NCBI GenBank assembly: GCA_041688155.1
Contig: JBDNIW010000012.1
Location: forward strand, 202-64,201
DNA length: 64,000 nucleotides
Reading direction: 5' to 3'
Source: Minisyncoccota bacterium
GTDB taxonomy: Bacteria > Patescibacteriota > Minisyncoccia > Phycocordibacterales > UBA918
Part shown: one piece after another, positions 4,493-61,731 of the stretch
Layout of the letters: the number at the start of each line of letters is the position of its first letter
Numbering within the stretch: position 1 is the first letter of the stretch
Translations under genes and position numbers: made by a program
Notes under the pieces: generated by a model
Databases searched by the model: none
Told to the model about the DNA's origin: nothing
The model's input: the letters and a program-made list of their open reading frames with translations, nothing else

Positions 4493-4544
4493 AGTTGTAT
4501 AAACAACTTTGAATACAAGCTGTATTATTTCTCGTCCCAGCGTT

Positions 4545-6026
4545 TCAGCGCGATAAAGGTAATTCAAAAATAAGACTGGTATCTTCATTGTAGTTAGCCT
4601 GGGCAATTAAGTTGCCCTCAGCATCAAACACCACTGATGGTCCAGATCTGGTAGCCCGAATGACTACTTTACGATGCTGTGTTGCGTACAGCCTGGCCTT
4701 TGTAGCATTGAAAGTGCTAGGTATTTCGTTTGAAAACATCGCTTCTGACCCTATTGAAAGCAATAGGTCTGATTGGTCCAGTTGCTTGGCTATGTGATCG
4801 GCGTTTGTTATCTCAGAGCAGATTGCATTTCCAATTACGAAATCACCAATTATAACAGGGGCTGTGTCTATGCCTGGCGTCGCATCAATCGGGGTGCTGT
4901 TCAGGCCAATATTTTGTGCCCAAAGAGGCGTATAATCAAAAAAAGGAAATAGATTTGCTTTTTGGTACGTAGCAATAACTTCGCCGTCTTGCCAATATAC
5001 GGTTTCATTAAAAAATTGACCTTCAGTGTACCTCGTATACCAAGTCACAAATATTATTTCAGGTGCCACGTGTTCTCGTAGCCAAGAACTAAATTGTAGG
5101 TGTGTAACTGTGATTATTTGTCGATCGAAAGTAAGGTTATCGTCACTACTTACACCCAATACTCCTGACCAAGGATTGAATGGATATATGATCATGTCCA
5201 ATTTGTGTTCTGACAAGTCAGCTAATTTTGCTTCTAATCTAGGAAAAGCAAACTGTCTGTCAATGACCTTGCCAAAAGCTTCGTTCTGATCAGCAGTTGG
5301 GTCTTGAATGATTGCAATTTTGAGACTCGCATTTTGTAATGGTGACAAACTGGGGCTACTTGAAACTATTGTACCCAACAGCCCAGCCACTACTATTCCA
5401 CATAAAAAAGAAAGAACCTGTTTACCTTTCCAGGGCTGAGTTTGAATTGCTTCGGCCAGAAGTGCATTTATAAAAACAACACCTAATATGTACCATTCAG
5501 CTGCATGTGAAGTGAATTGTGACGGTAGGGCAGAGACAAGTTCAACTGCTACATACACAAAAGAACCGTAGTTGAAGCCATATAAAATATACGAGAGTAA
5601 GACATCAACGCCTGCAAAAGTACAAAAAATACCAACCCTCACCCACCAGATAGATACAGGGAGTAGTTTTGTTTTAAGAAGCCAAATACCAGTACCCCAT
5701 AGTAGAGACATGATTATGGCTAGGAGTACTATGCCGATACCAACTGCATACATGAACCAGGTGAAAAGTACGGCCTCGTTAAGCCAAGAGAATCCGCTCA
5801 TAGTAACGCCTGTAGTGTAGCCAGCAAAAACCACGGCGTACATACCAACTCCAATAAGTATTTTGTACAAAGATGGTGTGTTAAATATATATATGTAGAG
5901 AGGTATAAGTGCAACAAAACCAAGTGCTGTAAAGTTGAAAGGTGGCAGGGAAATGATAGACGCTAAAGCAGCTATGACAGGGAGTGTAAAAGACGAGCGG
6001 TTGTGCATATGGGTTAAAGAGTACAA
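4545..6026 (-). CDS. apolipoprotein N-acyltransferase (Lnt)-like protein: polytopic N-terminal membrane domain plus C-terminal CN-hydrolase domain
   Basis: 493 aa. The N-terminal half is hydrophobic (LPPF..., many TM segments). The C-terminal half has nitrilase/CN-hydrolase features including GNAICSE (catalytic Cys context, as in the ICYE of Lnt). Confidence 0.65.
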   Translation of the reverse strand: MYSLTHMHNRSSFTLPVIAALASIISLPPFNFTALGFVALIPLYIYIFNTPSLYKILIGVGMYAVVFAGYTTGVTMSGFSWLNEAVLFTWFMYAVGIGIVLLAIIMSLLWGTGIWLLKTKLLPVSIWWVRVGIFCTFAGVDVLLSYILYGFNYGSFVYVAVELVSALPSQFTSHAAEWYILGVVFINALLAEAIQTQPWKGKQVLSFLCGIVVAGLLGTIVSSSPSLSPLQNASLKIAIIQDPTADQNEAFGKVIDRQFAFPRLEAKLADLSEHKLDMIIYPFNPWSGVLGVSSDDNLTFDRQIITVTHLQFSSWLREHVAPEIIFVTWYTRYTEGQFFNETVYWQDGEVIATYQKANLFPFFDYTPLWAQNIGLNSTPIDATPGIDTAPVIIGDFVIGNAICSEITNADHIAKQLDQSDLLLSIGSEAMFSNEIPSTFNATKARLYATQHRKVVIRATRSGPSVVFDAEGNLIAQANYNEDTSLIFELPLSR

Positions 6027-7219
6027 ATTAGAGAGCGACGCTTATTGCCAATTACCGATAAAGAACCCACCGGCTGCACGTGTACTGTTGCAATAAGGTC
6101 ATCTTGAATTGCTTTACGCAGCGAATAGTCTTTTGCTAGATACAACTTATTTAGCACATGTTCAGACAACAGGTTTGCACCACCACAGCGCGTGACACTA
6201 TCTTGCAATATTTCCAGTCGAAAATTAATATCATTACCTGTTCCAGACTCAACGTGGAGTTGGTATTCATCGGCTTTGAGGCTTGCTGCAGCGCAGCACT
6301 CGTCAAGGGTGCCTGCTCGTAATTCGAAGCCAGCTACTCTAACCACGTCCACCCCATTTCGTCCGTTGAGTTCAAGTATAGGCATTTGGGTTGACTCATC
6401 TCTACCTGAGATCGAAAAATAATCTCCTGTGCGGTATCTAATGAGTGGAAAAGCGGGATTACTATCGTATGTTATGACGAGTTCATCGTCAATTAACTCT
6501 GTAGCAATAAGTGCACTCTGATTAGGAACAAACCCAGTTTGATTGTTTGTAATCATGTCTTGAGTTGGACCTAGTATAAATTGACCAACCTCTGCTGATG
6601 CATACATGTTTATGATTTTTGCAAAAGGGTAGTGCGATCGAAGTTGCTTCATGATGGTATCATTACTCAACTCGGAAGCTACCACAAGTAGTTTAATGTT
6701 TGCTGTTGAGCATTGTGTTGCAAACCGTAATGCAATAGTTGGTGTAGCAAAAAGAGCATCGCAGTTGAATTTTTTTAGTAGCGCTGCACTGGTGGATAAA
6801 TTACTAATATCACCAAATACTGGCACAAGCCCAGAGTTTGACTGACGACACTGCTGGATGAAAGATGCACTAAAACTTTTGAGTAGTGGTTGATATAAGA
6901 TCAGGGCTCGATTGACAGGTAAATTAAAAGCAGGATTAAAATAGTAATCTTCGACTTGACCAAAAAAGAGTAACAAAGGATTTCCGCTTGAAGTTCCCGA
7001 CGTGTAAGCCGTGAACACAAGTTGATCGGCGGGGACATAACAACGTTCATCCGGTGAAGTCTTAGCAATTTCACTACGGGTCAGGAATGGTAAATCAGCG
7101 AGTGCTGCTATATCAGTGGTTAGATATTTGTTCCTGTAAAAATTGGAATATGTTGTGCTTGAGACTCGCCCAAGCAGAGCTCGCAGCCGTTCAGTATCGC
7201 AGTGCAAAAGCATTGTCAT
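6014..7219 (-). CDS. PaaK-like adenylate-forming enzyme (phenylacetate-CoA ligase / F390-synthetase family)
   Basis: TSGTSSGNP P-loop-like motif and YRTGD adenylation motif (LIRYRTGDYF). 401 aa. It overlaps the Lnt-like gene by 13 nt, so the two are probably co-transcribed. Confidence 0.6.
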   Translation of the reverse strand: MTMLLHCDTERLRALLGRVSSTTYSNFYRNKYLTTDIAALADLPFLTRSEIAKTSPDERCYVPADQLVFTAYTSGTSSGNPLLLFFGQVEDYYFNPAFNLPVNRALILYQPLLKSFSASFIQQCRQSNSGLVPVFGDISNLSTSAALLKKFNCDALFATPTIALRFATQCSTANIKLLVVASELSNDTIMKQLRSHYPFAKIINMYASAEVGQFILGPTQDMITNNQTGFVPNQSALIATELIDDELVITYDSNPAFPLIRYRTGDYFSISGRDESTQMPILELNGRNGVDVVRVAGFELRAGTLDECCAAASLKADEYQLHVESGTGNDINFRLEILQDSVTRCGGANLLSEHVLNKLYLAKDYSLRKAIQDDLIATVHVQPVGSLSVIGNKRRSLICTL

Positions 7220-7258
7220 ATTGTACCAAAATTAGCGTTATTTTGGTACAATAAAGGT

Positions 7259-7789
7259 ATGCAAACACTCTTGTTCGGTATTCTTATAACTGCAATCTGG
7301 ATTTTTATCTGGATTGATTTAGCTAGGTGCTCAGATTCAAACCGCAAGGCACTGCCAGAGAATACGAACATCAAAGTGGTGGGTGTTATTCTTCTGGTTG
7401 CTATTGCTTGTTTTTACACTGCGCTTTACTCAGTTTCATCTTATATATATCTCGCTCCTTTGTACGCACAATTTGTTTGCGTTGGATTACTCTTCTGCGG
7501 AGCCTATCTTGTTGTAGGGGCAAGAAGGCAAATGTCAGCACTCACGGCAAGAGAGGTTTTGTTTTCTGTGAATACAAAATATTCAGTCGGTGGCGTGTTT
7601 CAAAAATTTACCCACCCAATGTTTTTTGGTATCGCTATCATTTTGATTTCTAGCTGGTGTTTACTCCCAAATATTATACCGGGTGTACTTTTATTAATAT
7701 CACTGGCATTACTGTGCGTAAAAGCAGCGCTTGAGACAAGTGAACTTAGGAAACAATTGAATTTACGAGAACCAGGTATTGATCAGTAA
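7259..7789 (+). CDS. ICMT/PEMT-family membrane methyltransferase-like protein
   Basis: Polytopic membrane protein. The C-terminal motif YSVGGVFQKFTHPMFFG resembles the RHPxY.G motif of isoprenylcysteine carboxyl methyltransferases. The track ORF starts at 7202, but the likelier start is MQTLLFG. Confidence 0.5.
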   Translation: MQTLLFGILITAIWIFIWIDLARCSDSNRKALPENTNIKVVGVILLVAIACFYTALYSVSSYIYLAPLYAQFVCVGLLFCGAYLVVGARRQMSALTAREVLFSVNTKYSVGGVFQKFTHPMFFGIAIILISSWCLLPNIIPGVLLLISLALLCVKAALETSELRKQLNLREPGIDQ

Positions 7790-8537
7790 CTAGACGTGAC
7801 TGTTCGTTTGCTTGTAATGTAACAATATCGATTTCATCAAGTAAATCTTGATTAGGAATATTACCCGTAAGCGTTTGATCTAGTAAGTCCATAAGTTTAA
7901 TCACCAATTCAGAGTACTTAAGAGTTTCTGTTTCCAAGATGAATATCTGAGATTTTATCGTGTCAGCAACTATGTCAGAATTTCTGGCATACGTAGCTAG
8001 ATTTGTTGTGGCAAGATTAGTTGACGCTGCATACTCTCTGGACGCACTAACTTCAACTTGTGCATTATTTAATATTGCAAAAAAACCAACAAAATTTCCA
8101 GAAAGTGCTTTCTGCTGTACTAATTCCATTGTTGTCTGTACATCACTGAATAGCTTTTGGTTGAGAAGATCATTTTCTGTTGAGGCTACCTCTAAGAGGT
8201 TGACAAAATCCGGCGTTACCTGACTAGAAGCGGTGATGGTCAGCTGATTCACTGAGGATCGCGTGTTAGTCGTTATTCCTCCTTCTGGTCTGGTTGGAAA
8301 TTGTAGAGCATCTCTATCAGCTTGTGTGGGAACTGAGCCAAAAGTTGGTCTTTCGAGTACCGCATCCTCTAGCAGTTGTTCGAGTTGGGTGATACGGTTC
8401 TCCAGTTTTAAATTTGTTAACTCGACCTGCCCGCGATAAATAAATGTTTGTAGTGTGAACAAGAGTCCACTTATTAATATTCCAGCAGTAAATGCAGCAA
8501 TTATTTTTATCATCATATACTTGTAACTATACATCAT
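7746..8537 (-). CDS. hypothetical membrane-anchored coiled-coil protein
   Basis: N-terminal TM helix followed by a long low-complexity, coiled-coil-like region. No family recognised. Confidence 0.4.
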   Translation of the reverse strand: MMYSYKYMMIKIIAAFTAGILISGLLFTLQTFIYRGQVELTNLKLENRITQLEQLLEDAVLERPTFGSVPTQADRDALQFPTRPEGGITTNTRSSVNQLTITASSQVTPDFVNLLEVASTENDLLNQKLFSDVQTTMELVQQKALSGNFVGFFAILNNAQVEVSASREYAASTNLATTNLATYARNSDIVADTIKSQIFILETETLKYSELVIKLMDLLDQTLTGNIPNQDLLDEIDIVTLQANEQSRLVTDQYLVLVNSIVS

Positions 8538-8694
8538 TTTTTATTCCAGATACTAGTAATTAACAAATTGCCAATAAACACACGATTTAGTCGCGTATTA
8601 ATTTTGTTAATACGGAGATGGTATACTAAATTAGTCGATAGTTCGGTTAAAAGAATTCCAAAGTTTATGCAAAGGCATCTGATATAATTAAAAC

Positions 8695-9315
8695 ATGTTT
8701 TCACAAGTATCTAATAGTTTAAAAAAAAGTGTTGTTGTTGTTGTGATGGTCGCAATGCTTACTTTTTCAGTACCAAAAGAGTCGGAAGCCATTTTGTTGC
8801 TGCTGTTCGCACCGCTTACTATCGGTGCTACAGTTGCTCTCATTATTACTGAGATAGCAATTCTTTGTGCAGTAGGTGTGATTTGTGGAGGTGGGGGTGG
8901 GGGTGGCACGATAGGCGGAGGTCCAGGTAGTGCTTTTGTCGGTGATTCTTGTTCAGCTTCTAATTATTGCGGTCAAACCGGTGCTGGAACAGTTCAAAGT
9001 GATGGTTTTTGTACTGCATTACCGCCGCCAAATAGTGCGTGTACCAATGGATCGTTTCCAGATGATGCGCTAACAATAAACCCAGGTTTGGTAAGGATAG
9101 GTGATGATGTTGTAGTTAGTTATGATGTAGGTGTTTTTAACTATCCACCAAACTGTACTTTGAGTGGACCTGCCCCAATTGGGGTCATGCCTCTTACTAC
9201 ACAAACTGGCAGTTTGACAGTGACTGCATCAGCTGCGCACTTCTTTAGGCTTGAGTGTGGTACAACAAATGCGGAAGCAAAACTAGACTTGGTTGGTATT
9301 ATTCAAGAGATTTAA
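8695..9315 (+). CDS. hypothetical secreted/membrane protein with a Gly7 run and a Cys-rich ectodomain
   Basis: ATG start. N-terminal signal-like segment, then a TM helix, then GGGGGGG, then multiple Cys (CSASNYC, CTALPPPNSAC, ...). Confidence 0.45.
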   Translation: MFSQVSNSLKKSVVVVVMVAMLTFSVPKESEAILLLLFAPLTIGATVALIITEIAILCAVGVICGGGGGGGTIGGGPGSAFVGDSCSASNYCGQTGAGTVQSDGFCTALPPPNSACTNGSFPDDALTINPGLVRIGDDVVVSYDVGVFNYPPNCTLSGPAPIGVMPLTTQTGSLTVTASAAHFFRLECGTTNAEAKLDLVGIIQEI

Positions 9316-9336
9316 AAATTAATAAATCCAGATACA

Positions 9337-9840
9337 ATGAATAATGTCACAAACAATAACGTCTTTGCTTCATTTCGAGACAGCAAGACAAAAACACTTA
9401 AACTACGATTCTTGTTGGTGATTGTGTTTGGGTTCTTCTTCTATAGTGCTGGCATTTATATCTTACTTCGGGGGCTCTCAACGATTATGTTGGCTGAACA
9501 AGTAACCTTATTAAATTTTCTCCACTTATTTGCAACGGCGATACCGCCATTATTGATTGGATTCGGTTTACTAACTCTCAGGCATTGGTCAATATATGTA
9601 CTTGTTGCACACGTCACTCTGGCGGCACTTTCAGTACTTCCTTTATGGTACTTCGGTCTAAGTGAGTTGATTAGTAGTACCTTATCTAACAATTTGGTGA
9701 TTTTAGCTATTTTATTAGTCATGATTTCGCTTTCTTCGGAGTTGTACAAATCACGATACGGCATACTTCTCACAGTACTGTACGTATTGCTGCTGACTGT
9801 GACAAGTGGAACGCAGATATACTATCGATTGCAACTTTAA
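9337..9840 (+). CDS. hypothetical integral membrane protein (about 5 TM)
   Basis: Hydrophobic ORF that follows directly downstream of 8695..9315. Confidence 0.4.
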   Translation: MNNVTNNNVFASFRDSKTKTLKLRFLLVIVFGFFFYSAGIYILLRGLSTIMLAEQVTLLNFLHLFATAIPPLLIGFGLLTLRHWSIYVLVAHVTLAALSVLPLWYFGLSELISSTLSNNLVILAILLVMISLSSELYKSRYGILLTVLYVLLLTVTSGTQIYYRLQL

Positions 9841-9965
9841 AGTAGTTTTACCGGACAGTTTTTACCTTTGAAGCGTATTAAACAAGGTGTTACTTTATAA
9901 TATTGGATTAGTGCTAGTACTGATTTGATGATGTAACATTATATTATGTGTGCTATAAAGACAGA

Positions 9966-11495
9966 ATGAAACAAATAAGTTTAGGCAGTGATTTTACCTT
10001 TCAAGCTTTTATTGAAGCGGTTTTTTCATCTCCGGACTTAGATATTCCTTCGTTGCAGAGTGCCAACAAAACAGTGCAAGCTTCAGCTGAAGAAATTGTA
10101 TATGGCTGGAACACCGGTTTTGGACCGATGGCTCAAATCTATGTTGGTAAGCATGAACGGGTAAATCTTCAATACAATCTCGTCCGTAGTCATGCCTGCG
10201 GGGCAGGAAAACCCCTGTCAGATACATTGTGCCGAGCCATTTTGATTGCTCGACTGCAGACACTCTCCTTAGGATATTCAGCTGTAACAGAGCCTTTGCT
10301 GAGCGCTATGAAAAAGTTGGTAGTAAATCGTATACACCCGGTGGTGTATGAGCACGGTTCTGTTGGGGCGAGCGGAGATTTGGTACAGTTAGCGCACGTT
10401 GGCCTAGGACTCATTGGAGAAGGGGAGGTTTGGTACGAGAACGTTCTGATGCCTGCTGCCAAGGCACTTGAGGCGTGCGGACTAACTCCTTATGAACTTG
10501 GAAACCGTGATGGTTTAGCATTAATCAATGGGACAGCTGCGATGACAGCAATCGCAGCCATAAATATCAATCAAGCAGAGCAACTCTTTGAGCAGGCTAT
10601 CATCAATACGGCTTTAATTTATGATATATGCGAAGTACATCGAGATGTTTTTGATTCGCTTGTGGCACAAGTTCGTCCCCACCCAGGTCAGCGATACGTT
10701 ATTGATCGTTTGAATCATTATCTGCCGACCAGCTCCCATACCAGAGCTACTCCACTAATTAATTCAAAACAGATTAACGATTCAGAAACGTCACTTTTGT
10801 CCCATAATCCACAAGATATATATTCGTTACGTTGCGTTCCTCAAATACTTGGTCCAATACAAGACTCGATTCAGAGGGCTAAACAAACAGTTACAATTGA
10901 GCTCCAAAGTGTTACCGACAACCCAATTTTCAGTGCTAACCGTATTGTACACAATGGTAATTTTCACGGTGATTATGTTTCGTACGAAATGGATTGTTTA
11001 AAAATTGCGATAACGAAGCTGAGTTTATTGCTTGACCGACAAATGCATTTTTTGCTCCACGAACGAATCAACCAAAAATTCCCGCCATTTTTAAATGCCA
11101 ATACTCCAGGTCTAACTCTCGGACTCCAAGGATTACAGTTCGTTGCTACTTCAACAACAGCGGAAAATCAAACGATAAGTAATCCGATGAGTATTCACAG
11201 TATTCCAACCAATGGTGATAATCAAGATGTGGTTAGTATGGGTACCAATAGCGCTCTACTAGCTCACAAAGTTGTGAATAATACTTTTGAAATTTTAGCT
11301 GCCCACACAATTGCAGTAGTTCAGGCTACTAGGTTAAGCGGTAAGGGTGAATCTTTACCAAAAGAGTTATCCATGAAATACCAAATCGTAAACGAATTGA
11401 TTCCAGTGCTAGATAAAGATATGTCTCTACAGCCGGTTTTGGCAAAAGTGGGCCAAGATCTGCAGTCGTATCCACATACCAAAAAAACAAAATAA
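9966..11495 (+). CDS. aromatic amino-acid ammonia-lyase family enzyme (HAL/PAL/TAL; MIO prosthetic group)
   Basis: Ala-Ser-Gly MIO triad in GSVGASGDLVQLAHV and family-typical NTGFG. About 510 aa. No hutU, hutI or hutG neighbours. Confidence 0.8.
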   Translation: MKQISLGSDFTFQAFIEAVFSSPDLDIPSLQSANKTVQASAEEIVYGWNTGFGPMAQIYVGKHERVNLQYNLVRSHACGAGKPLSDTLCRAILIARLQTLSLGYSAVTEPLLSAMKKLVVNRIHPVVYEHGSVGASGDLVQLAHVGLGLIGEGEVWYENVLMPAAKALEACGLTPYELGNRDGLALINGTAAMTAIAAININQAEQLFEQAIINTALIYDICEVHRDVFDSLVAQVRPHPGQRYVIDRLNHYLPTSSHTRATPLINSKQINDSETSLLSHNPQDIYSLRCVPQILGPIQDSIQRAKQTVTIELQSVTDNPIFSANRIVHNGNFHGDYVSYEMDCLKIAITKLSLLLDRQMHFLLHERINQKFPPFLNANTPGLTLGLQGLQFVATSTTAENQTISNPMSIHSIPTNGDNQDVVSMGTNSALLAHKVVNNTFEILAAHTIAVVQATRLSGKGESLPKELSMKYQIVNELIPVLDKDMSLQPVLAKVGQDLQSYPHTKKTK

Positions 11496-11521
11496 TTGTA
11501 CTATATGGTATTATTCATTGT

Positions 11522-11751: not shown

Positions 11752-11827
11752 ATTGAAACTATTGAAACTATTGAAACTATTGAAACTATTGAAACTATTG
11801 AAACTATTGAAACTCAATAGTTTCAAT
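11752..11827. repeat. seven direct copies of ATTGAAACT, then an inverted copy (caatAGTTTCAAT) that can hairpin with the last unit
   Basis: Perfect 9-bp tandem repeat visible in the sequence. It lies inside an ORF that would encode (LKL)n. Confidence 0.9.
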
Positions 11828-28996: not shown

Positions 28997-29236
28997 ATGA
29001 AAAAAATATTCTGTAGCGACCTCGGTGGACCAGAGAACTGTGAGGTAGAGTTCAGAGGAGACGATCCGGCCGCTATAGTGAAAAACTGCCAAGAACACGT
29101 AATGGAGGAAGTAGAGGGCGGCGACAGCGACCACCAAGACGCCGTAGAAAACATGTCCGGCATGTCCCCCGAAGAACAACAAGAAAAATACACCGAGTAC
29201 CTACAAATTTGTACTGATGCGTTTAAGCGAGATTAG
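28997..29236 (+). CDS. DUF1059-like small metal-binding protein
   Basis: Translation MKKIFCSDLGGPENCEVEFRGDD... matches the DUF1059 N-terminal pattern. Confidence 0.5.
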   Translation: MKKIFCSDLGGPENCEVEFRGDDPAAIVKNCQEHVMEEVEGGDSDHQDAVENMSGMSPEEQQEKYTEYLQICTDAFKRD

Positions 29237-29288
29237 GGGAGTGGGAGTGTAAACAACAAACCACCCGTTTGGGTGGTTTGTCATTGTG

Positions 29289-29690
29289 GAGATGGCGGGA
29301 GTTGGTCACGAATCACTAAGTATATTGTTTCGCTGCGCTCACAATCTACTAAGTGTTCTCGACCCCGCCTCAACTGTTGTAGAGCCACATGTTTCCGTCT
29401 TTCAACTCCCGATGAAAGCAAAACTGTTTGCTTTCTCCATCTCCACCGAGCAAACAAAAAACGCTCTTGCGAGCGTTAATGTTTCCTGGTGGAGATGGCG
29501 GGAGTTGTCCTGACGGTCACAAATTCGCTTACGCTCATAAGTGCCGCGGGACATGGCTCGACTGTTTTGTGCCTTAGGAAAAGGCACAAAACATATCTCC
29601 GCTGTTCAACTCCCGACGAAAGCAAAACTGTTTGCTTTCTCCATCTCCACCGAGCAAACAAAAAACGCTCTTGCGAGCGTTAATGTTTCC
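29289..29690. repeat. two tandem ~210-bp units downstream of ssrA, each ending in a copy of the tmRNA 3' terminus (GGAGATGGCGGGAGTTG) and each carrying a copy of the ssrA terminator hairpin
   Basis: About 105 bp of each unit are near-identical (1 mismatch) and the rest has diverged. The tmRNA 3'-end fragment occurs 3 times in total (29289, 29481, 29691). Confidence 0.85.
29660..29684 (-). terminator. ssrA terminator (AACGCTC-GCAA-GAGCGTT followed by TTTTTTG on the minus strand)
   Basis: Hairpin plus U-run immediately 3' of the tmRNA CCA end. Confidence 0.75.
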
Positions 29691-30085
29691 TGGTGGAGAT
29701 GGCGGGAGTTGAACCCGCGTCCGAATTAGGGTGCGATTGTGATTCTACAGTGTGTAGGACATTCTTTGGTTTAAAGTCGCTCACTCAAGAATGAACAAAA
29801 CATGAGCGCCTCGAGTTCTTACAATCTTGACCTGCTATATGAACGGTATAGTAGTGTCCAGTCTCGTGTTTATTTTACCCCACTCAGCGTATGAGACGTT
29901 TACTGAGGGAGCATCTCTCCGAGCGAGCGGTTACGCTACAGCGAAGGGAGAGAATCCAAACGCGTTAGCGTAAGGACTTGGTATTGCTTTGTTTGCAAGT
30001 ACAGAGTGGAACCTTTTAACGAATTGATTCCAATTTCGACACTGCACACAACCGACACGACTAACCGTCGATGCCTGGCATCCCC
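29691..30085 (-). ncRNA. ssrA: tmRNA (SsrA), one-piece, 395 nt
   Basis: 5' GGGGAUGCCAGGCAUCGACGG... and 3' ...GGACGCGGGUUCAACUCCCGCCAUCUCCACCA. The tRNA-like acceptor has a G3:U wobble. The internal tag reading frame ends ...ANAFGFSPFAVA-UAA. smpB lies upstream on the same strand. Confidence 0.9.
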
Positions 30086-30780: not shown

Positions 30781-31227
30781 TTACTGACTTTTCAAGGTTC
30801 TATCGATCTCGCGTTTGTTGTCGCGGTCCTTTATGGATTCTCGCTTGTCTGTCTTCTTTTTACCACGGGCGAGGGCAATTTTCAACTTTATTTTTCCACC
30901 TGAACCATACCACGAAATAGGCACTATTGTCAATCTGTTGGCTCTGGTTTCTACTTCGAGTCGGTCTAACTGTTTTTTGGACAAAAGTAGTTTGCGGGCT
31001 CGCTCGGGGTGGTAGTTTTTGCTGGTGTTGGCTACCTGGAACGGGGCGATGCTAGCGCCAGTGAGCCACGCCTCACCGTGGGTGATCATGACGTATGATC
31101 CTTCGAGTTTACCCTTGCCGGCACGGATTGATTTGACTTCGGACCCAATCAAAACCGCCCCCGCTTCAAACGTATCGAGGTGTTCAAAATCAAACGTGGC
31201 TTTGCGGTTTTTGATAAAAGTAGGCAT
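30781..31227 (-). CDS. smpB: SsrA-binding protein SmpB
   Basis: Translation ...IKNRKATFDFEHLDTFEAGAVLIGSEVKSIRAGK.... Basic C-terminal tail. Confidence 0.92.
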   Translation of the reverse strand: MPTFIKNRKATFDFEHLDTFEAGAVLIGSEVKSIRAGKGKLEGSYVMITHGEAWLTGASIAPFQVANTSKNYHPERARKLLLSKKQLDRLEVETRANRLTIVPISWYGSGGKIKLKIALARGKKKTDKRESIKDRDNKREIDRTLKSQ

Positions 31228-37920: not shown

Positions 37921-38262
37921 CCTCTGTCTGCCCACTAGAACTTGAAACTTACAGTTTCAGTACAGGTTATCGACAGTTTATTTCGAAAACTCATAAACCT
38001 GTCTGATAACCTTCTCAAATAGTTTCCCAAACTATTTGAGCCTAGAACCACGAAGGTATATAGATATTCAAATTCTGAACATCTATACAGTCCTTCGCTC
38101 CAGATCTCAAATACTCGTAAACTCGTGCTTGAATCTTACTCTAGGACTGTAAGCTTCGCGCTCTACTTGGGCAAGTGAGGAGGTGTAGGAAAGTTTACTT
38201 TCGTATAGCCTCCGAACGCAGGACAAGCAAGCTTTGCTTACCGATTGAGCTACTTGGTTTGT
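37921..38262 (-). pseudogene. tRNA-like gene copy split into four ordered pieces (D-arm, D/anticodon, anticodon/T, T-loop/acceptor) by three 75-95-nt inserts; paralog of the adjacent tRNA
   Basis: Pieces ccaagtagctcaatcgg / tagagcgcgaagctta / tataccttcgtggttctagg / tttcaagttctagtgggcaga match the intact tRNA at 38290-38362. They are colinear and on the same strand. Confidence 0.6.
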
Positions 38263-38289
38263 ATATGGCACAAAGAAACACTTTATTTG

Positions 38290-38362
38290 TCCGCCCGCTA
38301 GGACTTGAACCTAGAACCACGAAGGTATAAGCTTCGCGCTCTACCGATTGAGCTACAGGCGG
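38290..38362 (-). tRNA. tRNA with anticodon loop CUUAUAC (anticodon UAU, Ile-AUA-type); CCA not encoded
   Basis: A cloverleaf folds by hand: acceptor CCGCCUG/CGGGCGG (one G-U), D-arm GCUC/GAGC, anticodon stem CGAAG/CUUCG, T-arm CUAGG-UUCAAGU-CCUAG. Confidence 0.7.
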
Positions 38363-42854: not shown

Positions 42855-42898
42855 AAATTAAAAAGACCCAACAGGGTCTTTTTAATTTGCGGAGACGA
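42847..42898. terminator. 52-bp perfect palindrome (24-bp arms) that includes the last 8 nt of the tRNA-Ser and an inverted copy of them
   Basis: cgtctccgcaaattaaaaagaccc-aaca-gggtctttttaatttgcggagacg. Confidence 0.7.
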
Positions 42899-42902
42899 AG
42901 CA

Positions 42903-43190
42903 ACAGTCCGGGGGACTGTTGCGTGAGGATTCGAAAAGCTTTTGCGTCAGATTGGGAGCGGAGCGAACTAATCTGTCCAAAAGGTATACTGCTTGTGTAA
43001 CAAGCGAATCCTCTCGTCAATTACGTCACCCGGTCCGGGGGACTGTTGCGTGAGGATTCGAAAAGCTTTTGCGTCAGATTGGGACCGAAGGGAACCAATC
43101 TGTCCAAAAGGTATACTGCTTGTGTAACCAGAGAATTCTCTCGTCAATTACGTCACCCAGTCCGGGGGACTGTTGCGTGAGGATTCGAAA
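42903..43190. repeat. 2.3 tandem copies of a ~127-bp MITE-like unit. Each has a 5' hairpin (caacagtccgggggactgttg), a conserved core hairpin (CTTTTG.GTCAGATTGG...CCAATCTGTCCAAAAGG) and a 3' copy of the tRNA-Ser 3' end (GAATCCTCTCGTC)
   Basis: Direct repeats are visible. The same core family occurs again at 44470-44760. Confidence 0.85.
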
Positions 43191-43277
43191 ATCTTGCTTT
43201 GTTTAAGATGTGTAGTAGTATTTTTGATGGATGTTGCCTAAATCGCAACACAACCTTCATGGAAGAGGAGATGCACC

Positions 43278-43670
43278 ATGAAAACGCGTACCCACTTTGT
43301 TATTCCAGCTTTGGCTGTCCTGGCACTTTCTGCTTGTGGCGGCGGAGGCGAACCTTTTGATCAATCTCGGTCTGCCTTAGACCAGCCACTGACTGTCGCT
43401 ACCATGGATATTACGTCGGTATCGTCCTCCGGTGAAGAGATGGTAGGTACCATATGGGCCTACATAAACTTTACCAGCGAGTTTCATGTTTCTTCTGACG
43501 CTGGCGTTGTGTGTGAAGGCAACACGAACGCCCATGGCGTTGGCGCGATGAATTGCTCCGACGGTCGTATGTACCCAATCGCGATCGAGGGCTATGGTTC
43601 CTTCAATGGTTCCTATGTTGAAGAATACCCAGGTGAAACAGTTCAAATTACCTGGAACCGACGGACCTGA
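43278..43670 (+). CDS. hypothetical lipoprotein
   Basis: Signal peptide with lipobox LSAC-G. Confidence 0.5.
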   Translation: MKTRTHFVIPALAVLALSACGGGGEPFDQSRSALDQPLTVATMDITSVSSSGEEMVGTIWAYINFTSEFHVSSDAGVVCEGNTNAHGVGAMNCSDGRMYPIAIEGYGSFNGSYVEEYPGETVQITWNRRT

Positions 43671-43750
43671 GTTTGAACGAAAACTGACCACTAACCACTA
43701 ACCACTAGCTATGTGTCTGGCCGTCAGTATAAAAAGTAAGAAAGCCCGCG

Positions 43751-43776
43751 GTGTGGGCTTTTTTTGTGCTCCACTG
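43751..43776 (+). terminator. hairpin aaagcccgcggtgtgggcttttttt
   Basis: GC stem followed by a T7 run after the lipoprotein gene. Confidence 0.65.
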
Positions 43777-44218
43777 AGTAGGTTGATGCAGTAGATGAGA
43801 CATGAAGCTGGTGTAAAAATTTAGGATAAATCTGGGATATAAAAAGTATACTAATACTATCCAGATACTCAGCGAATCTTCTCGTTTTTACCACCAAAAA
43901 ACACTCTTTGCTATACTCAATCTATGAATAAATTCTTTCATCACGAATCAGCTGTAAGGGATGGAAATCTGGCGGTACAGCACGTCGACTCCAGATCTGT
44001 TGTAGCTGCAACTCAGACATTTCTTGCATCATGTGGACTAGCACTTAAGGACTGCGTCTTGATTGAGTGTCAACATGCAGACAATATCACTCACGTAACA
44101 GCCAAAGAGAAATCACGTACTATTCCAACGTAAGCGTTGATTACTAACCAATCTGGTCCCAGTAACAAGTGAATCCTCTCGTCGCAAGTAACACTTTATG
44201 ATAAAGTACTACGCACCA

Positions 44219-44315
44219 CACGGAGAGTTGGCTGAGTGGATAAAATAGTCTGGGAGACTGTTTTATCCGACCAAAGGGAGGCGACGAACTCGTTCGACCC
44301 GAAGCCAACTCTCCG
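44219..44315 (+). pseudogene. degenerate tRNA-like element sharing the first 18 nt of the downstream tRNA, with an 11-bp acceptor-like stem (GGAGAGTTGGC/GCCAACTCTCC)
   Basis: The 5' 18 nt are identical to the tRNA at 44338. The internal arms do not form a canonical cloverleaf. Confidence 0.45.
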
Positions 44316-44337
44316 TGGATGAGTAAAGCGAATAGAT

Positions 44338-44424
44338 GGAGAGTTGGCTGAGTGGTCGAAAGCAGCAGTTTACTAAACTGCCGAGCCTTTGCGGGCTCCA
44401 AGGGTTCGAATCCCTTACTCTCCG
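44338..44424 (+). tRNA. type-II (Ser-like, G73) tRNA with an atypical anticodon loop UUACUAA (anticodon ACU?)
   Basis: Acceptor GGAGAGU/ACUCUCC, 3-bp D-stem, anticodon stem GCAGU/ACUGC, variable hairpin GAGCC/GGCTC, T-loop GGGUUCGAAUCCC. Confidence 0.6.
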
Positions 44425-44432
44425 CAAATACC

Positions 44433-44830
44433 AAAACCTAAAGCATGTCTTTAGGTTTTGTTGTATTTTGCGAGAGAGTAAGGGATTCGAAAAGCTTTTG
44501 AGACAGATTGGGACCGAAGGGAATCAATCTGTCCAAAAGGTGTACTGAACTCGTAGAGTTCGAATCCCTTACTCTCCGCCAAAACAAAAAGTACCCGCAA
44601 GGGTGCATTTTTGTAAGCGGACAGTAAAGTAACAGTTCGGGGAACTGTTACGTGGGATTCGAAAAGCTTTTGAGTCAGATTGGGACCAAAGGGAACCAAT
44701 CTGTCCAAAAGGTATACTGCTCGTGTAACGAGAGAAATTCCCTTACTCTCCGCAAATACCAAAACCTAAAGCATGTCTTTAGGTTTTGTTGTATTTTGTG
44801 CGAGAGTGAGGGGTTGGAAAAGAGCTGGAG
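44433..44830. repeat. nest of tRNA-linked repeats: two MITE-like units with the same core as 42903-43190, bounded by inverted and direct copies of this tRNA's 3' end, plus a duplicated terminator hairpin
   Basis: cgagagagtaagggattcgaa (inverted 3' end) ... core ... gttcgaatcccttactctccgcc (direct 3' end). The second unit ends the same way. The terminator AAAACCTAAAGCATGTCTTTAGGTTTT occurs at 44433 and again at 44761. Confidence 0.8.
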
Positions 44831-57792: not shown

Positions 57793-57812
57793 ACAAAAGT
57801 AACGGAAAAAAC

Positions 57813-59838: not shown

Positions 59839-61731
59839 TTGTATAATAAATCAATAATATTAATTTTCACTATGTCTTTCACTAAAAATCTGTCGCTTGC
59901 TTTTATTATTATTCCTTTCGCATTGTTTTTTAGTTTTGCTCAAATTTCATCTGCGCAAACCGCCCCGTCTACACCCACAGATCTGACTCCTACCCCCGGC
60001 AGTACACAAGTCGACCTCACGTGGACTGCGCCAGCAGACGGTGGATCCGCTATTACCGACTACACAGTCGAGTATCAATCATCCAATGGAGTTATCTATG
60101 TTACAAATGCTGCCAACAATACCATCCTCAAATCTACCGACGGTGGAACAACCTGGACTGACACTACTAACGGTGGAGCGTTTAATTCTCCACGAGATCT
60201 CACCACTGATAGTGCAAACGCTATCTATGTTACAAATCTTAGCAACAACACCATCCTCAAATCCACCGACGGTGGAACAACCTGGACTGACGCTACTAAC
60301 GGTGGAGCGTTTAATAATCCAATAGGTATCACTACCGATAGTGCAAATAACATTTATGTTGCAAATGCTGACAACAACACCATCCTCAAATCCATCGACG
60401 GCGGAGCAAGTTGGACTGACACTACCAACGCTGGAGCGTTTAATGGTCCACGAGGCATCACCGTAGATAGTGCAAATAACATCTATGTTGCAAATGCTGA
60501 CAACAACACCATCCTCAAATCCATCGACGGCGGAGCAAGTTGGACTGACACCACCAACGGTGGAGTGTTTAGTACTCCAGCAAGCATCACCACTGATAGT
60601 GCAAACGCTATCTATGTTACAAATGCTGGCAACAACACCATCCTCAAATCCACCGATGGTGGAGCCAGTTGGACTGACACTACTAACGGTGGAGCGTTTA
60701 ATTCTCCAATAGGTATCACCACCGATAGTGCAAATAATATCTTTGTTGCAAATTTTAACAACAACACCATCCTCAAATCTACCGATGGTGGAGCGACCTG
60801 GACTAACACTACCAACGGTGGAGTGTTTGATAATCCAGCAGGCATGGCAGCTTCGAAGTGGCTCACGTTCTCTGATGGTACATCGACCACAGTTTCAGCA
60901 ACCGTTACAGGTCTCTCCAACGGCACTTCATACGATTTCCGAGTCAGAGCTATCAATGCCGTTGGTACTGGATTGCCGTCTGGTGTGGTAAGTTCGATTC
61001 CTGATATGGCACCTTCATTACTCTCATACACGTCTCCTAATGTCTATACAGTAGATGCGGTAATCACACCTCTTTCACCAACGGTGACAGGAACAGCGGT
61101 AAGTTATGTAGTTTCCCCAGCTCTTCCTACTGGGCTTTCTCTAGATGCAACCACAGGAATAATCAGTGGAACACCAACAGCTATTACAGGAGTGGCTACA
61201 TACACCGTCACTGTAACTAATATGGTTGGTAATACTACCTTTGACTTGGATATAACCGTTACTAATGCGCCTCGTAACAACAGCAGTTCTGGTGGATTTA
61301 GATATGGGTGTAAAGATACAAATGCAAGTAATTATAATGACCGTTCAAGACACAAGCAAAGTTTATGTGAGTATGAGCAAAAAATTGTAGATACAAATAC
61401 AAACTCTACCGATATTCTGGAGCAAATACGTGAACTACAGCAACTACTAGCCGAACTCCAAGCACAAGCCGAAGCAGTCGTTACAACAACTGCCGCAATC
61501 CCAGCAAACTGCAGCTTCACCCGTGACCTAACCACCGGTAGTAGTGGGCAAGACGTCACCCGCTTGCAGCAGTACCTCACCACCACCGGTGACTACACGT
61601 TCCCCGAAGGACCTACTGGCTACTTTGGATCAGTCACCGAACAAGCCGTGCAAAGCTGGCAGGCACGCAGCGGAATCCTACCAGCTGCCGGCTACTTTGG
61701 CCCAATCTCGCGCAGTGCTGTTACACAGTAG
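59839..61731 (+). CDS. secreted multi-domain protein: signal peptide; an Fn3 domain split by seven ~42-aa YVTN/NHL-type beta-propeller repeats; a putative Ig-like domain; a coiled coil; a C-terminal peptidoglycan-binding (PG_binding_1-like) domain
   Basis: Fn3 halves TPTDLTPTPGSTQVDLTWTAP...TDYTVEYQ and WLTFSDG...YDFRVRAINAVG. Repeats IYVTNAxNNTILKSTDGGxTWTD. The C-terminus DVTRLQQYLTTTGDY...GYFGP. Confidence 0.7.
   Translation: MYNKSIILIFTMSFTKNLSLAFIIIPFALFFSFAQISSAQTAPSTPTDLTPTPGSTQVDLTWTAPADGGSAITDYTVEYQSSNGVIYVTNAANNTILKSTDGGTTWTDTTNGGAFNSPRDLTTDSANAIYVTNLSNNTILKSTDGGTTWTDATNGGAFNNPIGITTDSANNIYVANADNNTILKSIDGGASWTDTTNAGAFNGPRGITVDSANNIYVANADNNTILKSIDGGASWTDTTNGGVFSTPASITTDSANAIYVTNAGNNTILKSTDGGASWTDTTNGGAFNSPIGITTDSANNIFVANFNNNTILKSTDGGATWTNTTNGGVFDNPAGMAASKWLTFSDGTSTTVSATVTGLSNGTSYDFRVRAINAVGTGLPSGVVSSIPDMAPSLLSYTSPNVYTVDAVITPLSPTVTGTAVSYVVSPALPTGLSLDATTGIISGTPTAITGVATYTVTVTNMVGNTTFDLDITVTNAPRNNSSSGGFRYGCKDTNASNYNDRSRHKQSLCEYEQKIVDTNTNSTDILEQIRELQQLLAELQAQAEAVVTTTAAIPANCSFTRDLTTGSSGQDVTRLQQYLTTTGDYTFPEGPTGYFGSVTEQAVQSWQARSGILPAAGYFGPISRSAVTQ
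60080..60840. repeat. seven tandem ~126-bp DNA repeats (encoding the beta-propeller blades)
   Basis: Near-identical nucleotide units, visible as repeating out-of-frame ORFs in the track. Confidence 0.85.

Follow-up and report, generated by a model that had tools for sequence, protein, structure and literature searches.

Downstream of the transfer-messenger RNA (tmRNA) gene ssrA, a 64,000-nt stretch of contig JBDNIW010000012.1 from a Minisyncoccota bacterium (the window) carries two tandem units, here called A and B, each of which ends in a copy of the tmRNA 3' end. On balance, we read these units as non-autonomous integrative mini-cassettes that reside at the 3' ends of genes for tmRNA and tRNAs within a patescibacterial clade and are mobilised in trans. 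It is very likely that they form a real element family and are neither scars nor an artefact, and a route via a recombinase acting in trans is moderately likely. Insertion polymorphism, modularity, retargeting, a conserved fold and a maintained palindrome of gene end, terminator and inverted arm are all observed. The key feature, overlooked in the original prediction made from the letters of this DNA, is a copy of the tmRNA 3' end in inverted orientation (X'), which follows each terminator. No description of the cassette family was found in Rfam or in the full-text literature searched.

Anatomy of the units at the tmRNA gene

ARAGORN places the tmRNA gene at exactly the boundaries first proposed, and the Rfam model RF00023 matches it with 116.5 bits (threshold 47), so that ssrA is intact as claimed. 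The tag peptide read by ARAGORN is ANKAIPSPYANAFGFSPFAVA*. The ends of the molecule (5' GGGGAUG and 3' CCAUCUCCACCA) form the expected G3:U pair, read from the sequence as G3:U70.

The tmRNA 3' terminus does recur twice downstream. An exact 19-nt block X (CAACTCCCGCCATCTCCAC) is present three times, at 29693-29711, 29489-29507 and 29286-29304, and the 17-mer GGAGATGGCGGGAGTTG occurs three times in the window (29288, 29491 and 29695), where 0.01 occurrences are expected by chance. As in the islands defined by Islander, an intact target is therefore accompanied by its displaced 3' fragment as a direct repeat on the far side. The two units are tandem, but the spacing of the repeats is 204 and 203 bp instead of the approximately 210 bp given before. 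That one half of the unit is near-identical and the other diverged was borne out: positions 29387-29507 and 29591-29711 are 95% identical over 121 nt, and the cores differ. Both predicted hairpins were also recovered, the terminator hairpin (AACGCTCgcaaGAGCGTT with a T-run) twice on the minus strand in the terminator scan and the second perfect hairpin (GAAAGCAAA/TTTGCTTTC) in both units. The units are non-coding, and no integrase lies between the repeats.

In the sense of the tmRNA, each unit is composed of a terminator module, X', a core of about 96 nt and X. X' consists of GGTGGAGATGG, the reverse complement of the acceptor 3' strand, a hairpin, and CGGGAGTTGAA, the reverse complement of T-stem and T-loop. 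The "second hairpin" of the original prediction (AG-AAAGCAAAC..GTTTGCTTT-CGT) is thus an insertion within X', which it splits at the boundary of T-stem and acceptor. Together the tmRNA 3' end, the terminator and X' make up one long Y-shaped palindrome with a side hairpin, and terminator module 1 is both the terminator of the tmRNA and the tip of this palindrome. The terminator is intrinsic and bidirectional and takes over from the displaced terminator of the gene. Units A and B carry the same terminator, while A-type units elsewhere carry another one. In the core of unit A, domain 1 contains a CGGA/GAG internal loop and domain 2 is closed by GTCC/GGAC. A further hairpin terminator beyond the last 3'-end copy (29258-29279) is common to the convergent open reading frame (ORF) 28997-29236.

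Across the whole family, X' copies the last ~21 nt of the gene, the core measures ~70-120 nt and the whole unit 140-225 bp. The direct copy spans 19-21 nt in all units, from halfway along the T-loop (CAACT..) to ..CTCCAC. Copies adjoin tRNA-like genes only.

Units in related genomes show insertion

Loci were fetched from genomes and metagenomes with SmpB as anchor and labelled L001 and so on; the SmpB relatives are all Patescibacteria metagenome-assembled genomes. A single unit follows the tmRNA in L002, L006, L008, L021, L036, L045 (=L067), L047, L051 (=L052), L059, L061 (=L070), L063, L074, L075 and L078, two units in L079 and L082, and a degenerate one in L010. Orthologues of the core of unit A are found in L045, L059, L063 and L051, and the core of unit B is orthologous to the single units of L061/L070, L002 and L047. 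A covariance model built on 16 units (alignment A1) scores 19 copies at more than 40 bits, distributed over the window and 16 other loci. In more distant relatives no units were found after the tmRNA.

Duplication or collapse during assembly, which had been named as something that would undo the prediction, is a practically negligible explanation for the tandem units. The independent European Nucleotide Archive contig L001 has the same two units, with a single nucleotide difference to the window in 8094, and this agreement of two assemblies on the layout speaks against an artefact. In addition, the two cores are different sequences, and single homologous units recur across independent assemblies (L045=L067, L061=L070).

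Empty sites were found in L009, L005, L071, L066 and L069, where the tmRNA is directly followed by the flank GAcATAGAAgTATatGGAAG. The same flank instead follows the distal X in L002, L045, L070, L074 and L079. As empty and occupied sites share the flank, the units are insertions and not ancestral sequence. At the same site and with the same flank, the core is of A type in L045 and of B type in L070; both types are present in the window, and this indicates independent events. The order of elements also varies. In L070 the tmRNA is followed by a unit and then an islet coding for HigB/HigA-like proteins, whereas in L071 the HigBA islet comes first, followed by X, a terminator and a unit. These opposite orders show that different elements have been stacked at the gene-proximal site in differing order. 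The encoded CCA is often kept in distal copies where the gene-proximal copy has none, and the distal copies in L078, L079 and L082 retain older or foreign variants of the 3' end.

The HigBA islet, of the toxin-antitoxin kind, is bounded at the tmRNA site by further 3'-end copies (L070 6810-9716; L071 6353-7110). Its left flank GAcATAGAAgTATatGGAAG is kept beside the tmRNA across genomes with only 55-85% SmpB identity. Separately, tandem GCACGGAGGCCTTGCCTCCGTAGTTAT-like repeats have invaded the decayed distal 3'-end copy in L051 (6740-6900) and L063 (2500-2590).

Modules reassort and are retargeted to tRNA genes

The modules of the units are combined in different ways. One terminator, termX, occurs with A and B cores in the window and with a B core in L070, and the termY-type terminator is joined to an A core in L045, L063 and L051 and to a B core in L047. 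In L008 a front module matched to the tmRNA is joined to a different, "type 2" core.

The original prediction had pointed to a similar element at two tRNA loci, and the same architecture is indeed present after both tRNA-Ser genes in the window. Behind tRNA-Ser(GCT) a terminator is followed by an X' of GCGGAGACGA, the AG-hairpin-CGT and GAGGATTCGAA. Two 127-bp units with type 2 cores (42855-43195) precede a third, whose core is split by ~1 kb with two ORFs and whose rear module and 3'-end copy lie at 44140-44183. Behind tRNA-Ser(ACT), the first unit is without the AG-hairpin-CGT. The type 2 cores at the tRNA-Ser loci are 86-94% identical, and the arms match the own 3' end of each tRNA. In L014 and L078, arm-less copies of the core lie behind tRNA-Ile terminators.

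Several further observations were made at these tRNA genes. The ORFs inside the third tRNA-Ser(GCT) unit are a lipoprotein-like one (~43278-43670) and a small one (~43925-44133). The tRNA-Ser at 44338-44425 (plus strand) has the unusual anticodon ACT and lies beside the normal tRNA-Ser(GCT). On its 5' side a mirror-image layout is seen (44222-44337, plus strand), with a copy of the tRNA 5' end (GGAGAGTTGGCTGAGTGG, 44222-44239), hairpins and an inverted copy (CCAACTCTCC, 44305-44314), after which tRNA-Ser(ACT) begins; the element family may insert at 5' ends, too. The tRNA-Ile at 38289-38362 (minus strand) has the anticodon UAU, which recurs in relatives. Downstream of this intact gene, a second tRNA-Ile copy (37930-38288, minus strand) is broken by three insertions, in the D-loop, in the anticodon loop and at the boundary of T-stem and T-loop, the third of which resembles the type 2 core (nhmmer E 0.064). 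In L078 (470-900, minus strand) an intact tRNA-Ile is nested between the 5' part (1-35) and the 3' part (39-76) of another tRNA-Ile. Flanking inverted repeats of ~20 nt extend its acceptor stem, and behind its terminator lies an arm-less core of the tmRNA type.

A conserved, covarying fold of the units

As single-stranded DNA, positions 29598-29716 (tmRNA 3' end, terminator 1 and X') adopt a Y-shaped hairpin fold with an energy of -46.3 kcal/mol (z -11.7). As in folded single-stranded recombination sites, this is an imperfect palindrome that copies the target duplex and bears an asymmetric extra-helical feature. X' is able to pair equally well with the distal X, which closes the unit. Folded as RNA, unit A reaches -83.2 kcal/mol (z -9.7) and unit B -67.8 kcal/mol (z -6.9).

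The consensus structure of alignment A1 has 93.7% of its cells paired, and compensatory changes are seen in 17 of its 33 pairs. In total 70 compensatory cells were observed, compared with 20.6 in shuffles and at most 11 with slid partners, and the AG-hairpin-CGT alone contributes seven covarying pairs. The core is composed of two domains and keeps unpaired motifs, namely the CGGA/GAG internal loop, the GAGCGnAGCGAA loop and ..GTGAC at the junction to X. Counts of G-U and A-C are balanced and give no strand or RNA signal.

It had been suggested that the units are either scars of serial integration and excision or a miniature non-autonomous element. The second alternative is upheld by the relatives, the empty sites, the fold and the tRNA-Ser loci, and the first is not. 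As deletion remnants of larger islands once present at ssrA, the units would fit with the serine-recombinase islands and the HigBA islet that use this site in relatives, and with the decay of some distal copies or their invasion by tandem repeats (L051, L063). However, they are uniform in size and share one covarying structure in at least 19 copies, the same modules occur at other tRNA genes, and no similarity to island ends is seen. A structure of ~165 nt with 17 compensatory pairs across genomes is not what random deletion leaves behind, and we regard scars as a very improbable explanation.

The fold also raises the question of a small structured RNA gene, in which each unit would encode a tRNA-like RNA of ~165 nt. 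X' at the 5' side and the copy of the tmRNA terminus at the 3' side would form an acceptor-like stem, which the tRNA/tmRNA enzymes could trim; the RNA would arise when transcription of the strongly expressed upstream gene reads through, and the repeats would result from duplication or recombination and not from transposition. The closed multi-helix fold with its strong covariation, the unpaired motifs and the RNA fold energies agree with this, as do the location of all units next to tRNA-like genes and the fact that every unit ends like the tmRNA, with the same 3' terminus and terminator. Several results argue in the opposite direction. Promoter scans found no sigma-70-like promoter in or before the units, and a terminator lies directly upstream of each. 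The 3' copy in the closing stem decays in at least seven units while X' is still perfect against the upstream gene. The stem contains A3-U70 and pairs through the discriminator base and is thus not a chargeable tRNA mimic. Presence or absence at one site, the two subtypes and the copy that carries genes look like insertions. Finally, the possibility that the conserved half is a known small RNA was not borne out, as no Rfam 15 family matches the units at gathering thresholds, and a permissive Rfam scan gave only chance matches to long hairpins. We consider an RNA gene improbable.

A permuted (two-piece) tmRNA was considered as well and rejected. RF04321 scores 26.2 bits against a threshold of 47, and there is no tag reading frame. 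This match spans the tmRNA 3' end, the terminator and the start of X' and reflects only the palindrome.

The inverted arm X' and the possibility of guided insertion

The acceptor part of X' is complementary to the resident gene at 161 of 163 positions. In the T-arm part, 8 of 11 positions show two or more types of Watson-Crick pair, and ~108 cells contain 2 mismatches. In seven units the distal copy has lost 2-7 of its 19 nt (12-19 are retained family-wide), and X' is still nearly perfect. In L047 and L051, X' is of the CAACT type while the T-loop of the host gene reads CGACT, which indicates that X' came with the element and was not copied locally. The proposal that the element copies the local 3' end is therefore right only in part: the distal direct copy behaves as a displaced or duplicated, decaying target, but X', judged by these sequence variants, appears to be carried by the element.

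The complementarity of X' runs past ..CCAC into the flanks of the terminator, as genomic sequence does. This excludes a binding site for a tRNA primer and points to a palindrome at the level of DNA or to a co-inherited block. Priming of reverse transcription on X' by the tmRNA or a tRNA was rejected accordingly, since X' matches the genomic ..CCACTC (L006) and not mature CCA and is thus mismatched to the 3' end of such a primer. Copying of X' at each insertion, by fold-back or template switch alone, is disfavoured by the CAACT-type X' in CGACT hosts and by the AG-hairpin-CGT, which sits at one fixed place in all families. Correction from arm to arm may help to maintain or rewrite X'.

X' and the fold could serve as a folded single-strand site, as a guide, as a mimic of a recombinase half-site or as part of an RNA product. 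This leads to a reading in which insertion is guided, directly or by structure, and X' is a programmable targeting device for any tRNA-like gene. In a DNA version, a single strand would fold, the block would pair with X', the target duplex would be rebuilt and one strand exchanged. In an RNA version, an RNA of the element would pair via X' with the target strand and direct insertion right behind it. We hold guided insertion to be unlikely, and the same applies to the corollary that a guided element has been rewritten for the tmRNA, two tRNA-Ser and tRNA-Ile and is able to carry cargo. Nevertheless, a number of features agree with it. The layout of block, short spacer, inverted block, body and block is the footprint inferred for the integration of a folded hairpin from the CTX model, in which one pair of strands is exchanged between the single-stranded phage DNA and the host duplex and integration is irreversible (PMC3442271, PMC6744903). 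The single strand of gene end, terminator and X' has the Y-shaped fold described above, with a complementarity that continues seamlessly into the terminator flanks. The bulged hairpin is invariably found at the centre of the site and on one and the same arm, and seven compensatory pairs preserve it. Many loops are GNA triloops closed by C-G (CGAAG, CGCAG, CGGAG, T-GTA-A), a type of loop that has unusual stability in DNA. The tRNA-Ser loci differ in their arms while their cores are alike, and X' is kept while the distal copy decays.

On the other hand, the window yielded no recombinase, no HUH nuclease and no protein of the IS110 or TnpB type. Dyad symmetry of its own is missing from the target, which is not a dif site, and the arm-less cores after the tRNA-Ile terminators (L014, L078) show that X' is not obligatory. 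Bridge RNAs have guides for two strands, whereas both halves of X' pair with one strand. The balanced G-U and A-C counts give no hint of an RNA, and arm-to-arm correction of the palindrome could keep X' without any function.

Recombinases at the junction and a model for mobilisation

In Pfam scans of the window ORFs of at least 150 amino acids, no recombinase, transposase or reverse transcriptase domain was detected. This includes DEDD recombinases, the partner proteins of IS110-type bridge RNAs, and tyrosine recombinases, for which no search aimed at Xer/IntI was made. No helper for mobilisation is seen within the 64 kb. The window is ordinary chromosome, which encodes FtsH, RecG, ribosomal proteins and SecY.

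An integrase that targets ssrA elsewhere, as the original prediction had advised to look for, does exist in relatives, where large serine recombinases sit at the same junction. Genes for proteins of ~550 amino acids with Resolvase, Recombinase and Zn-ribbon domains abut ..CTCCAC in L004, L014, L048-50 and L062, and in L010 a serine recombinase gene follows the distal X of the mini-unit. These genes lie on the reverse strand and their 3' ends overlap X. The island side of the junction begins with ATCAYRGGARTTTG-N6-CAAAYTCC, an inverted and direct pair of T-arm-like motifs that covaries with the T-arm of the host (GGGAGTT/ACTCCC, CGGAAT/ATTCCG). To judge from these junctions, inverted target copies may be a general trait of elements at this site. 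The motif ATCAYRGGARTTTG..CAAAYTCC is absent from the mini-units, and the link to the serine recombinases is consequently one of site only.

Two pattern scans of a viral collection were also carried out. The pattern CATCTCCAC-N30-60-GTGGAGATG gave 44 matches, none beside a tmRNA, and AATCTGTCCAAAAGGT gave 21, approximately the number estimated by chance.

For the mini-cassettes we propose the following course. A free, probably circular form with one 19-21-nt block would recombine with the same block in the gene; the gene would remain intact, with its 3' end copied at the far side. Arrays would build up through further such events at the gene-proximal site once it is regenerated, and each cassette would supply a terminator to a gene that has been cut off from its own. 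The enzyme would act in trans, and the best candidates are the large serine recombinases found at this junction in relatives.

Several points weigh against this mobilisation in trans. A recombinase was found neither in the 64-kb window nor adjacent to any mini-unit, and the A-rich terminator flanks at the left ends of the mini-units are unlike the island-side junction ATCAYRGGARTTTG.., so that the island serine recombinases may not recognise them. A double-stranded circle of 200 bp is mechanically implausible, and plain site-specific recombination gives X' and the covarying core no reason to exist. The single informative polymorphisms, which bear on reciprocal crossover versus target duplication by staggered cuts, conflict: L047 favours crossover and L051 does not. 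In L078 and L079 the distal copies differ from the present gene, and an extra allelic replacement is needed. Moreover, reassortment is seen among terminators, arms and cores (A and B cores are each found with termX and with termY), so that the spread among close relatives may be due in large part to homologous recombination.

Comparison with known elements

The units resemble tRNA/tmRNA islands (PMC3146451; Islander, PMC4383910) in that the target is intact and a ~20-nt copy of its 3' end, from halfway along the T-loop, marks the far boundary. The closest parallel among these are the ssrA islands of Dehalococcoides, which have a 20-bp repeat from halfway along the T-loop and a serine integrase of 540 amino acids (DsiB) beside attL; 15 of them are without integrase and were read as cis-mobilizable elements (PMC3146451). 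In both cases tandem arrays are formed downstream of ssrA and some elements are without an integrase, and relatives of the present genome carry serine recombinase genes of ~550 amino acids on the reverse strand at the junction, as in Dehalococcoides. In contrast to these islands, no serine recombinase of ~540 amino acids is present in the units or the window. The units measure 140-225 bp instead of kilobases and are free of genes except for one tRNA-Ser copy. They carry an inverted target copy, a dedicated terminator and a conserved structured core, and one cassette family serves several tRNA-like targets. Islander-defined islands contain an integrase gene, which the non-coding units of 203-204 bp do not.

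Cis-mobilizable elements (CIMEs; PMC5704250) also have att-like flanking repeats, carry no genes for recombination or transfer, stand in tandem with other elements at one site and are presumed to be mobilised by the recombinase of a helper. However, they are decayed derivatives of larger elements without conserved non-coding structure, whereas the units described here are minimal, conserved and modular.

Bacterial miniature inverted-repeat transposable elements (MITEs) such as Correia/NEMIS and RUP (PMC3184786) are likewise small, non-coding, structured and multi-copy and can supply terminators. Unlike them, the units have no consistent terminal inverted repeats in the aligned unit ends and no short fixed target duplication, and they are not dispersed. 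Their inverted repeat pairs the element with its target and not the two ends of the element, and its arms are matched to the target.

Integron attC sites are imperfect palindromes with an extra-helical feature on one arm. The units share with these sites and with CTX-phage-type IMEX integration (PMC3442271, PMC4246890) the imperfect palindrome and the extra-helical feature on one arm, and could as a single strand fold into a copy of the target duplex. Also as in CTX-type integration, site, spacer, inverted site, body and site follow each other, and integration is apparently irreversible and additive at a regenerated site. They differ in their target, which is the end of a tRNA-like gene and not dif/attI, and in their body, ~100 nt of structured non-coding sequence.

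Mobile elements that bear guides include IS110 with its bridge RNA and group II introns with pairing between exon-binding and intron-binding sites (EBS/IBS). Similar to these, the units have a segment of ~21 nt that is complementary to the sequence just before the insertion point and specific for the target, while the rest is conserved. Unlike in these elements, no DEDD recombinase or intron-encoded protein was found, and the units are far smaller than a group II intron. Instead of the two guides of a bridge RNA there is one contiguous antisense arm, split by a hairpin, and no donor-binding loop.

Integration into genes for tRNAs and tmRNA ranks among the main routes of horizontal gene transfer, and the elements known to use it measure kilobases and have an integrase of their own or borrow one. 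The cassette family amounts to an element stripped to ~200 bp that keeps a conserved fold and an arm complementary to the target. It is present at every tRNA-like gene in the window and can hold genes. If insertion were guided, bacteria of the candidate phyla radiation would harbour a new class of guided integrative element of minimal size. If arm and fold are a recognition device, the family would represent a compact integration module that can be retargeted, and a new kind of mobile DNA among the little-studied Patescibacteria. If the cassettes merely hitch-hike with a helper, att sites are parasitised at minimal cost by an element that brings along its own terminator. In addition, the cassettes would explain stacked tRNA/tmRNA fragments in metagenome-assembled genomes of this kind.

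Features of the locus and of the rest of the window

The features at the tmRNA and tRNA-Ser loci and the recombinase genes of the relatives are collected in Table 1.

Table 1. Coordinates of the features described; positions refer to the window unless a locus label is given.
Feature	Position	Strand	Basis or detail
tmRNA gene (ssrA), intact	29691-30085	-	ARAGORN; Rfam RF00023
Block X in the tmRNA (last 19 nt preceding the encoded CA; target/identity block)	29693-29711	-	coordinates
Terminator module 1 (GGAAACATT AACGCTCgcaaGAGCGTT TTTTGTTTGCTC)	29652-29690	-	terminator scan
Unit A X'	29605-29651	-	acceptor part 29641-29651, hairpin 29616-29640, T-arm part 29605-29615
Unit A structured core, subtype A	29508-29604	-	alignment A1, covariation
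Second tmRNA 3'-end copy (CAACTCCCGCCATCTCCAC + CA), right boundary of unit A	29487-29507	-	
Terminator module 2, identical to module 1	29448-29486	-	terminator scan
Unit B X'	29401-29447	-	acceptor part 29437-29447, hairpin 29412-29436, T-arm part 29401-29411
Unit B structured core, subtype B	29305-29400	-	covariance model 172.7 bits
Third tmRNA 3'-end copy (..CTCCACAA), right boundary of unit B	29284-29304	-	
Further hairpin terminator (AAACCACCCaaacGGGTGGTTT) beyond the last 3'-end copy	29258-29279	.	sequence
smpB, tmRNA partner gene, upstream of the tmRNA	30781-31227	-	Pfam SmpB on gene called in L001
Units after tRNA-Ser(GCT)	42855-44183	+	
Units after tRNA-Ser(ACT): two with type 2 core, then a partial third	44426-44822	+	
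Large serine recombinase gene	L048 6360-8021	-	
Large serine recombinase gene	L062 6516-8156	-	
Large serine recombinase gene	L004 7514-9169	-	
Large serine recombinase gene	L014 7265-8875	-	
Large serine recombinase gene	L010 7011-8579	-	

Elsewhere in the window, a ribosomal-protein cluster (~4500-11500; S3, L5 ... L6, S5, SecY) is broken by a stretch of low GC content (0.39-0.43), whose products are CN-hydrolase-like and AMP-binding-like proteins as well as aromatic amino acid lyase proteins. A perfect repeat of 9 nt, present seven times (ATTGAAACT), lies at 11752-11814. Tandem repeats of 129 nt (~5.8 copies, 60094-60909, plus strand) are located inside a gene for a protein of 630 amino acids with NHL, fn3 and peptidoglycan-binding domains (59839-61731), and repeats of 113-155 nt precede three genes in its neighbourhood, at 57806, 59629 and 61843.

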